From the IMG/VR virus record IMGVR_UViG_2531839433_000004: DNA of 23,310 nt; one strand, 5' to 3'. This DNA comes from a virus. Its lineage: Duplodnaviria; Heunggongvirae; Uroviricota; Caudoviricetes. The notes beneath the pieces were generated by a model. The model worked only from the letters and a program-made list of their open reading frames with translations, was not told the origin of the DNA and searched no databases. Shown here piece after piece: positions 1 through 2,456 of the stretch (positions are counted from its first letter, which is position 1; every line of letters begins with the position of its first letter). The position numbers were made by a program, and so were the translations under genes.

Positions 1-452
1 CTATGCTGTTTTGATATCTACGATAACCCAGTCTTTACCACGATCATCATTGTATCGGTCGGTCATTTTTCTGGATTTATGGCCTAACAACTTTTGCGTA
101 TCCAGACCCTGTTCCCGATATAACCGTTCTGACAGAGATCGCTGCTCATGAAATGTGGGCGCAGTTCCTTGCTCCCATTTTATGCCACATTTTTCCCTGG
201 CCTTTTTAAAAGCCGTTGTCAGAGTATTTGCAGAAACCTGGTCTCCTCTGTTTGCTTGAGAGGTAGTGTGACGGTAATGGACCAGATATTTACTAACAAC
301 AGCATCCCTGCACTGAGATATAACTTCACGAAGGGTAATATTCAGAGCATCGCATTTCAGGTTAAGCGGAATAGCAAGTTTTGAACCGGTTTTTTCCTGA
401 GTAATGTGCAACATGTCGTCCCATATATCAGAGAATTTCAAATTGCAGATAT
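1..452 (-). pseudogene. int: Lambda-type tyrosine integrase, 3' (C-terminal catalytic) fragment separated from its 5' part by an IS insertion
   Basis: Translation ...LVTGQRLGD|ICNLKFSDIWDDMLHITQEKTGSKLAIP...HEQRSLSERLYREQ...LLGHKSRKMTDRYNDDRGKDWVIVDIKTA is collinear with the lambda Int C-terminal region (recalled from memory). Stop codon is at 1..3. Reading frame is continuous with the 5' part once the IS and one TSD copy are removed. Confidence 0.85.
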
Positions 453-494
453 TGAACCGCCCCGGGTTTCCTGGAGAGTGTTTTATCTGTGAAC

Positions 495-1385
495 TCAGGC
501 TGCCAGATCATCGTTTCCGATGGAAGCATAATAAGCTTTTTCTGCTTCTGCCGGAGGAGTATGGCCCAGCCTTTCCAGCAATCGTCGATTGTTATACCAG
601 TCCACCCACGTGAGTGTGGCCAGTTCCACTTCTGCACGGTTTTTCCAGCTCTTACGGTGTATTACCTCCGCTTTGTAAAGACCATTGATGCTCTCCGCCA
701 TCGCGTTGTCATACGAGTCGCCTGTACTTCCTGTTGATGCCAGTAATCCGGCTTCCTTAAGCCGCTGTGTGTAGGCCAGCGATACATACTGAGAACCTTT
801 ATCACTGTGATGGACCGTGCCGGACGGTCGACGGGCCCATAACGCCTGCTCCAGTGCATCCAGCACGAATGTCGTTTCCATGGACGATGAGACCCGCCAC
901 CCCACGATGTATCCGGCAAACACATCAATGATGAACGCCACATAGACGAAGCCCCGCCATGTGCTGACGTAAGTAAAATCAGCCACCCACAGCTGGTCAG
1001 GTCGTTCTGCCACGAACTGACGGTTTACGCGGTCGCCTGCGGCAACGGCTTTCCGGCTGATGGTCGTACGGACCTTTTTACCCCGGAGAACACCGGCAAG
1101 TCCCATAACCGCCATGAGACGTGCCACAGTGCATCTGGCCACTCTGATACCTTCCCGTAACAACTGACGCCAGACTTTACGCACACCGTATACCTTGTGA
1201 TTTTCATCGTATACGCGCTGTATCTCTTTCTTCAGCCAGTCATCGCGCTGCGCACGGGCACTGCGTTTATCCGGATGATGTCGCTGTTGCTGACAGTGGT
1301 AATACGTTGACGGGGCAATATGCAGTTCGCTGCATAGCGGTCCGACCCCGTACTGCTCACGCAGCTTATCCAGCAGTGGCATCAT
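495..1385 (-). CDS. IS3-family transposase OrfB (DDE/RNase H-fold catalytic domain), presumably expressed as an OrfAB fusion by -1 frameshifting
   Basis: 296-aa ORF overlapping the orfA stop in the -1 frame. Carries integrase-core-like sequence ...[31 protein letters not shown]...[11 protein letters not shown]...[18 protein letters not shown]. Confidence 0.85.
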
Positions 1386-1708
1386 TTTTTCCAGAGGCGG
1401 TCGAACTCCGCCTTCGCAAAATAAGCGGAAGCCTGGCGAAGGATATCGTTACTGCGGCGCAGTTCACGATTTTCACGTTCCAGCTCTTTCAGACGCTGAC
1501 GTTCAGCGGTGGTGAGCCCTCCATCACCGCCCCCGGTATCCCGCTCATGCTGGCGAACCCAGACACGCAGAGTCTCCGGCGTACAGCCAATCTTTGGAGC
1601 AATGGAACAAATTGTCGCCCATTGTGAGTCATATTCGCTCTGACTTTCCAGAACCATACGGACTGCCCGTTGACGGACTTCGGGGGAAAAACGAGTATTT
1701 TTAGTCAT
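1382..1708 (-). CDS. IS3-family transposase OrfA (HTH DNA-binding subunit)
   Basis: 108-aa [26 protein letters not shown]...[36 protein letters not shown] with a leucine-zipper-like C-terminus. Ends on an A6 run immediately before orfB. Confidence 0.85.
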
Positions 1709-1762
1709 CCTGTTTACCTCTTTCTCAGGAAGTTTAGTCTCCAGGATTCCCGGGGCGGTTCA

Positions 1763-2456
1763 TATCGCCTAAACGTTGTCCAGTAACAAGAGCAAGTAGC
1801 ATGCCGCATTTTAAATAGGGCTGCCGTCTGCTTACGCTTTCAAATATTGCCTGCCATTCTGGCAGTGACAATCTTTGGCGGTTTACTCGATTTCGCGGTT
1901 GTTTTGTTGCCTGCGCTGGGTTAAATCCTGGCGGAACATGTCCTGCGTGTTGTGCTTCTTTGAAGACGTCGATCAACACCATTCTCACGACTTGCGCCAT
2001 CCTGTTATGACCTTCAGCCTTTACAGCATCAATTATTTCGGCAATATCAAGTGCGGTAATATCCTTGAGGTGTTGCATTCCACAATGCTCACGGAAAAGA
2101 CGAATGGGTTTGCCTTTTTGCCGATAGGAGTTGGGTCTTAGTTCATTATGTTGCAGCCTGTCCTCCTGGATAGAAATATATTTATCAAGCCATTCTGTCA
2201 CCGTAATGTCTGAGCGCCTGCCTTTCATTCTTTCCAGACGCTCATTGACGCTTAATATTTGTCTGGTACGTTGTTCAGCAATAATGGTATTTGCTTCAGT
2301 AGCAACTTGTTTTGCTTCATTCTCATCAGTTCCTAAGCTATGAAAACGACCGGATAGTGGATGTTTGTATTGCCAATATACCTTTCCGGTTCGCTTATCT
2401 AATTTGCAATATAAATTGGGTATAGAGATTTTGTGAGATCGGGGTCTAGCAGCCAT
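1763..2456 (-). pseudogene. int: Lambda-type integrase, 5' (N-terminal arm-binding and core-binding) fragment
   Basis: MAARPRSHKISIPNLYCKLDKRTGKVYWQYKHPLSGRFHSLG...SLPEWQAIFESV...LLALVTGQRLGD resembles the lambda Int N-terminal two-thirds. The ORF runs into IS sequence (MNRPGNPGD*) after GD. Confidence 0.85.

Follow-up and report, generated by a model that had tools for sequence, protein, structure and literature searches.

An IS629-type element inside the integrase gene of a cryptic lambdoid prophage at icd in an enterotoxigenic Escherichia coli lineage

Anatomy of a split integrase gene

This analysis concerns a 23,310-nucleotide (nt) stretch of DNA, the IMG/VR virus record IMGVR_UViG_2531839433_000004, referred to at its full length as the window, and the insertion sequence (IS) that interrupts the phage integrase gene (int) at its left end. 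At 100% identity, the window matches the chromosome of the enterotoxigenic Escherichia coli (ETEC) strain 504239, a human stool isolate from India. Its first letters are the stop codon of the integrase gene, with the end of icd 113 bp away, and the prophage to which that gene belongs covers about 22 kb between icd and a displaced copy of the icd 3′ end (21616-21832). An earlier reading made from the letters alone (the sequence-only reading) had placed an IS3-family element with intact orfA and orfB inside a lambda-Int-like gene, flanked by a perfect 3-bp target duplication and removable so as to leave a continuous frame. Alignment and reconstruction bear out this description, and the split gene comprises the following features (lengths of proteins in amino acids, aa).

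1..452, minus strand: int 3′ fragment, from part of codon 232 to codon 380 plus the stop codon (1-3), carrying K255, H332, R335, H355 and Y364
450..452, no strand: left copy of the TAT target duplication, read from the sequence and from an empty site with a single TAT
453..1762, minus strand, in the same orientation as int: IS3-family element of IS629 type, 1310 bp, assigned from its ends, Pfam, Rfam and RefSeq naming
453..477, no strand: IRR, the orfB-distal inverted repeat, 23 of 25 bases matching the opposite end
495..1385, minus strand, in the −1 frame relative to orfA: orfB, 296 aa, with HTH_21 (Pfam, 3e-18) and rve, DDE (8e-28)
1311..1427, minus strand: predicted programmed −1 frameshift region, an A6 run TGGAAAAAATGATG plus ALIL pseudoknot (Rfam RF01497, RefSeq)
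1382..1708, minus strand: orfA, 108 aa, an open frame with HTH_Tnp_1 (Pfam, 7e-13)
1738..1762, no strand: IRL, the orfA-proximal inverted repeat, matching the opposite end
1763..1765, no strand: right copy of the TAT target duplication, read from the sequence
1766..2456, minus strand: int 5′ fragment, codons 1-231, with the arm-binding and core-binding domains and catalytic R228

The exact limits of the element, 453 and 1762, enclose a sequence that reads TGAACCGCCCCGGG.../...CCCGGGGCGGTTCA at its termini. These ends (TGAACC / GGTTCA) are of the TG...CA type, they match as inverted repeats over 23 of their 25 terminal bases, and the length falls in the 1.2-1.55 kb range of the IS3 family. The unoccupied site, found in strain YD786, reads gcagaTATcgcc and has one TAT only, which makes the TAT on both sides of the element a genuine target duplication; chance alone would give such a match once in 64. 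The boundary itself can be drawn in two ways: because the IS ends in A, the same letters could be parsed as a 4-bp ATAT duplication around a 1309-bp element.

Deleting 453..1765 in silico, that is, the IS together with one TAT, produces a 1143-bp open reading frame (ORF) of 380 aa that reads ...GQRLGD-ICNLKFSDIW... across the former site. Relative to the intact YD786 gene (WP_000741339.1), the reconstructed gene has one synonymous base and zero amino-acid changes, and its protein is identical to the intact alleles of other E. coli. It is this identity that is decisive, since the frame is also open when the IS alone is removed (GD-N-ICNL), the 3-bp duplication staying in frame, so that frame restoration by itself would be weak evidence. 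The alignment of the reconstructed integrase with lambda Int (PDB 1z1b, E=1e-55) spans the full length, and the protein contains the Pfam domains Arm-DNA-bind_1 (1.7e-28, residues 1-71) and Phage_integrase (1.1e-23, residues 200-367). All six catalytic residues, R228, K255, H332, R335, H355 and Y364, are kept, and the motifs TGQR, TGSK, FHEQR, GHK and DRY match those of lambda in the alignment; the R-K-H-R-H-Y assignment follows the lambda catalytic residue numbering. Among phages, lambdoid records (1H12 and the Lambda_ev series) encode integrases 99.5-99.7% identical to the reconstructed protein, the 1H12 Int standing at 99.7%.

By its letters, the inserted element qualifies as a member of the IS3 family on every feature examined: length and ends, ORF pair, frameshift signal, DDE transposase and target duplication. 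In IS-internal coordinates orfA occupies 55-381 and orfB 378-1268, a frame offset of −1, and the two overlap at TGGAAAAAATGATG. Over this region Rfam returns a full-length match to the ALIL pseudoknot (RF01497; 120 bits against a 50-bit threshold), a predicted frameshift signal, and in RefSeq this DNA is entered as an IS3-family transposase whose joined coding sequence includes a programmed frameshift. Candidate DDE residues are readable in orfB as D (ADFTY), D (HSDKG) and E (MAESING). The narrower label of IS629 type has indirect support, coming from RefSeq naming and from relatives in O157: an identical segment in the sister strain WS1933D is named 'IS3-like element IS629 family transposase', and the O157 copies annotated IS1203 are 96% identical to the window element. 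Copies identical or at least 99% identical to it occur in about 1,300 records.

The gene in the window thus no longer encodes one uninterrupted polypeptide with all catalytic residues. The IS sits between D231 and I232, three codons past Arg228, and cuts R228 off from the other five. The 3′ fragment is left without start and promoter, and the 5′ ORF reads into the IS to position 1734, giving a product of 240 aa that consists of 231 aa of Int followed by MNRPGNPGD. RefSeq flags both halves as pseudogene fragments, the 3′ part as a partial tyrosine recombinase pseudogene. Since the catalytic domain is bisected, neither fragment should be able to act as a recombinase, and one can safely conclude from the letters that Int activity is lost.

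The excision module and the surrounding remnant

Three further features of the window belong with int in the excision module.

2446..2682, minus strand: xis, intact, 78 aa, Pfam Exc, overlapping the start of int
21360..21616, plus strand: P arm of attR, homologous to the P arm of the 1H12 attP, with a putative arm-type site CTTTCCCCAAAAT at 21485-21497
21616..21832, plus strand: displaced icd 3′ end (icd′), matching the end of icd at attL with 93% identity across 217 bp and holding the attR crossover region

The Xis protein has the same accession (WP_000088653.1) in strains with an intact int. The attachment site attL falls immediately left of the window, and its sequence comes from the flanking locus, L001; the attP of phage 1H12 aligns with the P arm of attR, the icd-like core and the P′ arm of attL. 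That P′ arm bears three direct CTTCCCCAAAAC repeats between the stop codons of icd and int (5955-5992 of L001, just left of the window); a related copy of the CTTCCCCAAAAC type lies in the P arm of attR (21485-21497), and all copies are conserved in the 1H12 attP. These repeats and the attR copy are probably arm-type Int-binding sites. A motif scan of the window for such sites gave 2 matches against 0.7 expected, a count equalled by 16 of 100 shuffles and hence not significant alone; the match at 21487 is credited only because it is aligned with the 1H12 attP. The parts of an excisable prophage are accordingly present, namely attL and attR with core and arm sites, and xis. As all of these look intact, the IS is the only visible lesion of the excision module.

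The rest of the element tells of a different and wider decay. Phage 21 and e14 are likewise lambdoid elements that integrate at icd. In the window element int::IS and xis are followed by exo/bet/gam/kil, a cI-like repressor, a cro-like gene, YdaT, the O and P replication genes, an MT-A70 methyltransferase pseudogene, a PRTase-like/NADAR pair, ybcN and ninE. Then come an opposite-strand block (truncated rrrD, essD, porin, quuD, ylcG), a tail-fibre assembly gene and, last, an AAA-ATPase/McrC pair. Annotation of the element returned no terminase, head or tail genes between int and icd′. The late genes also fail to run in one direction, the Q-porin-lysis block standing on the opposite strand, and both rrrD and a nuclease gene are truncated. 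The element is a cryptic lambdoid remnant irrespective of the IS.

Its nearest IS-free relative, in strain 65COLEC (84% coverage, 99.5% identity), has int and xis intact and is also without morphogenesis genes. It keeps the same early region, the stop codon within the MT-A70 gene and the PRTase/NADAR and AAA/McrC genes; it does not keep the porin.

Several segments of the remnant are observations in their own right.

10397-10981, plus strand: MT-A70 methyltransferase pseudogene with an internal stop, common to 65COLEC
11193-12825, plus strand: PRTase-like and NADAR pair, between the replication genes and ybcN
13806-16980: DLP12-like block (truncated rrrD, essD, OmpC/NmpC-like porin, quuD, ylcG), opposite to the replication and nin genes that it should follow
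17239-17437, plus strand: full-length match to Rfam IS009 (RF02111), 213 bits against a 117-bit threshold, within the tail-fibre assembly gene
17841-20914, plus strand: AAA-ATPase (651 aa) and McrC-like pair, adjoining attR

The internal stop of the methyltransferase gene, being shared with the IS-free 65COLEC, is either older than the IS insertion or derived from the common ancestor of both elements. The DLP12-like block has truncated genes at both borders (the nuclease gene at 13704-13811 and rrrD at 13806), which together with its reversed strand points to an inversion plus deletion; when the two borders of this Q-porin-lysis block were searched for inverted repeats, only short weak pairs turned up. 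The PRTase-like/NADAR pair is likely, by its database matches, to be defence cargo: in PADLOC the PRTase-like protein matches PRTase_III-A (7.5e-11) and the NADAR-family protein matches PDC-M42C (1.4e-8), and some RefSeq records name the former a 'phosphoribosyltransferase-like anti-phage protein'. Of the pair next to attR, the AAA-ATPase matches PADLOC restriction-enzyme models, and the McrC-like protein has zero PADLOC matches. In e14 a restriction gene occupies the same end of the element.

Distribution, age and activity of the insertion

Both IS-int junctions occur in exactly 6 of 5426 complete E. coli genomes: 504239, 67-1, TW11681, S1-NGR-02-A, WS1933D and LR883000. The whole remnant, at an identity of at least 99.9%, is confined to the same six, which include isolates from India and Egypt. 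One of them, TW11681, an ETEC of the STh/CFA-I type, has served in human challenge studies (PMC6446980). Because junctions and remnant are found together and only in these six related genomes, they point to one ancestral event inherited by one clone. A multicopy IS, of which the host has about 8-9 ends per chromosome, might have been misplaced into int by assembly or annotation; the junctions are, however, identical in six independently assembled complete genomes, and target duplication and reconstruction are exact, so that the chance of such an artefact is negligible and a fault of assembly is effectively refuted.

The same distribution bears on the age of the insertion. The sequence-only reading had called it recent and possibly still active. 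Recency finds some favour in the undecayed state of the IS, but an insertion common to all six genomes, isolates from India and Egypt among them, predates the spread of the clone and is not a recent strain-specific jump. As for activity, the ORFs, frameshift signal and repeats are intact, identical copies exist elsewhere, and the ends vary in number: a search for IS copy number across the six sister chromosomes gave 7 to 12 ends per chromosome by the right end (7, 7, 8, 8, 9 and 12) and 8, 8, 9, 9, 10 and 12 by the left. These differing counts suggest continuing IS629 movement or loss in the lineage, and it is reasonable to think that the copy in the window may still be active. Against this, the copy has been killed in two sisters.

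In these two, WS1933D and LR883000, the junctions lie 2270 bp farther apart, with a group II intron (ltrA) within the IS. The intron, of about 2.27 kb and encoding the LtrA reverse transcriptase/maturase, occupies about 2238-4501 of the WS1933D locus (L004), a place equivalent to window position 967/968 in orfB. The result is an intron in an IS in an integrase gene in a prophage in icd, the IS copy being dead there.

Integrase genes of this kind have been hit elsewhere as well. IS1B lies in the integrase of EC2341 and ISVsa5 in that of CP053785, and BEN5202 has an IS629-like insertion (L005, 3730-3745) in the opposite orientation at a site equivalent to about 2037-2047 of the window, some 280 bp away from the one described here. 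Four more strains, FY26, APEC E12053, NCTC11151 and IAI39, have a similar 61-nt match over the annotated integrase and, as far as this match alone tells, probably share the BEN5202-type insertion. On the IRL side the flank reads TTTCGGCAATA in BEN5202 and TTTAGGCGATA in the window, identical at 9 of 11 positions and with the same ATA/TAT duplication, a likeness between two sites only that may stem from an IS629 target preference. Going further, int might be a sequence-directed hot spot for IS629-type elements. Separately, the 240-aa Int fragment, with its arm-binding and core-binding domains, might be expressed and serve as a decoy that occupies att sites and disturbs the integration or excision of incoming icd-specific phages. 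We consider these two ideas long shots.

Consequences for the remnant and parallels elsewhere

The reading that we favour, with a probability of a little over 80%, is that an IS629-type insertion inactivated int in an already defective icd prophage in an ETEC ancestor and thereby incidentally immobilised the remnant. IS3-family elements transpose by a copy-out/paste-in route. In the proposed course of events, an IS629-type element would have transposed once, in the ancestor of the six-genome clone, into GAT|ATC at codons 231/232 of int, duplicating 3 bp; the target would have been a lambdoid prophage residing at the icd 3′ end, defective beforehand, with head and tail genes gone, the late region rearranged and the methyltransferase a pseudogene. 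Arg228 and the two DNA-binding domains would thereby have been severed from Lys255, His332, Arg335, His355 and the Tyr364 nucleophile, leaving no active recombinase, and the remnant of about 22 kb would be unable to excise unless a superinfecting phage of the same Int specificity supplied the enzyme. The insertion would then be a further step of IS-driven decay, its fixation incidental and not a selected lock. That the remnant is locked in place is well supported by inference and precedent. For the Int-disrupted prophages Sp3, Sp11 and Sp12 of O157 Sakai, the prediction was that they could not excise, and zero circular forms were detected (PMC2669165).

The lock would fail if another resident prophage supplied Int in trans. 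Complementation between defective prophages is documented in O157 Sakai (PMC2669165), and attL, attR and xis look intact in the window element. A second match to the 694-nt 5′ part of int is, however, absent from the six chromosomes, in a search at the level of megablast with plasmids outside its scope. Place counts in this search were equal whether the query held 50 nt or 694 nt of int, and came to a single place once the IS part was cut to 30 nt; two of the three intact-int strains listed after the six, serving as a control, showed a second place with this joint int and iee query. An integrase of the same specificity would, moreover, normally occupy the same icd site, and a superinfecting 1H12-like phage is the only plausible source of Int in trans. 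Supply from a resident prophage seems to us very improbable.

The block would be conditional, again, if precise removal of the IS restored int, as might be brought about by the IS-excision enhancer (IEE). IEE promotes IS629 excision and is reported to be abundant in ETEC genomes (PMC9943667), and in O121:H19 IEE-mediated IS excision is reported to restore lacZ (PMC9397093). Its action is transposase-dependent, and the transposase genes of the window IS are intact. Such a reversible switch is nonetheless hardly credible here: the first 300 nt of the O157 iee gene (Sakai ECs_1305) had zero matches on the six chromosomes in the same megablast-level search, where two control strains gave a second place, and the IS is still present in 6 of 6 genomes, disrupted by the intron in two of them.

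A third alternative keeps the lock but makes it adaptive. The sequence-only reading had proposed that the insertion protects cargo genes from loss by excision, and one could extend this to selection for blocking the Int/Xis-mediated loss of the PRTase-like/NADAR pair, the AAA-ATPase/McrC pair and the porin. The remnant does hold defence-like genes, as judged from the PADLOC matches of the PRTase-like and NADAR proteins (PRTase_III-A and PDC-M42C), the restriction-enzyme models matched by the AAA ATPase and the McrC and porin annotations; the insertion is retained in 6 of 6 clone members; and IS1B, ISVsa5 and a second IS629-like element have independently entered the same integrase elsewhere. 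Yet six genomes of one clone would be expected to keep the insertion through inheritance alone. The IS-free 65COLEC holds the PRTase/NADAR and AAA/McrC genes next to an intact integrase. More broadly, the integrase is found at a nucleotide identity of at least 95% in 1679 of 5426 genomes, and in about 1,616 of these 1,679 it is essentially full length in one stretch, by the measure of one place covering at least 80% of the gene; at least one of the alleles so counted, that of EC2341, is nevertheless interrupted by a short IS. Protection of cargo is unsupported: the element was already defective, without morphogenesis genes, and a similar remnant persists in 65COLEC without the IS. An adaptive lock thus appears unlikely, and the data show no sign of selection as against neutral decay.

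Four considerations nonetheless count against neutral, incidental immobilisation. Abolished excision is deduced from the letters and from precedent only. The negative searches for int and iee cover chromosomes at megablast sensitivity, not plasmids or diverged iee and int genes. Cells may still produce the N-terminal 240 aa, and this fragment may bind DNA. And six clonal genomes cannot decide between neutrality and selection.

The importance of the locus is mostly local. Incidental immobilisation by the IS accounts for two integrase pseudogene fragments that RefSeq records at icd in an ETEC clone including TW11681; it leads one to expect the remnant at icd, along with its defence-like genes, to be a fixed part of the chromosome in this lineage; and the junctions, found in so few complete genomes (6/5426), are usable as a clone-specific marker in the polymerase chain reaction. 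Each of the two components has known counterparts at or close to 100% identity, and their arrangement can already be seen in RefSeq annotation. Prophage decay of this sort is textbook matter, and this is, in general terms, one more documented IS-driven case. Only two points are mildly unusual: the four-deep nesting in two sisters, and the likeness of the flanks at the two sites in this gene that IS629-type elements entered independently.

Compared with known systems, each part of the locus has a close counterpart. The IS resembles IS629 / IS1203 of Shigella sonnei and E. coli O157 in its 1310 bp, TG...CA ends and inverted repeats of about 25 bp, and likewise in its 108-aa orfA and 296-aa orfB (0/−1), A-run and ALIL pseudoknot, rve domain and 3-bp duplication; no structural difference separates them, the window variant being about 4% diverged from the O157 copies. 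The reconstructed integrase shares with the lambda integrase family, phage 1H12 and Lambda_ev the order of arm-binding, core-binding and catalytic domains, the R-K-H-R-H-Y residues and the adjacent xis, and in the attP of 1H12, as at the window element, an icd-like core rebuilds icd upon integration. It differs from these lambda-type and 1H12 integrases in that the window gene is split and predicted to be non-functional. Prophage domestication, or 'grounding', offers a looser parallel: selected retention is unsupported for the window element, and the likeness lies in the loss of morphogenesis and, as predicted here, of excision, with accessory and defence genes kept. The nearest precedents come from O157. 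Relative to them the present case concerns an ETEC and not an enterohaemorrhagic E. coli, an icd site and a remnant of about 22 kb. Like Sp3, Sp11 and Sp12 of Sakai, it is a lambdoid prophage whose site-specific recombination module has been knocked out (Asadulghani et al. 2009, PMC2669165), and like the Stx2c prophage with IS629 in its excisionase gene (Shaaban et al. 2016, PMC5359411), it belongs to the recurring cases in which IS629 damages a prophage.

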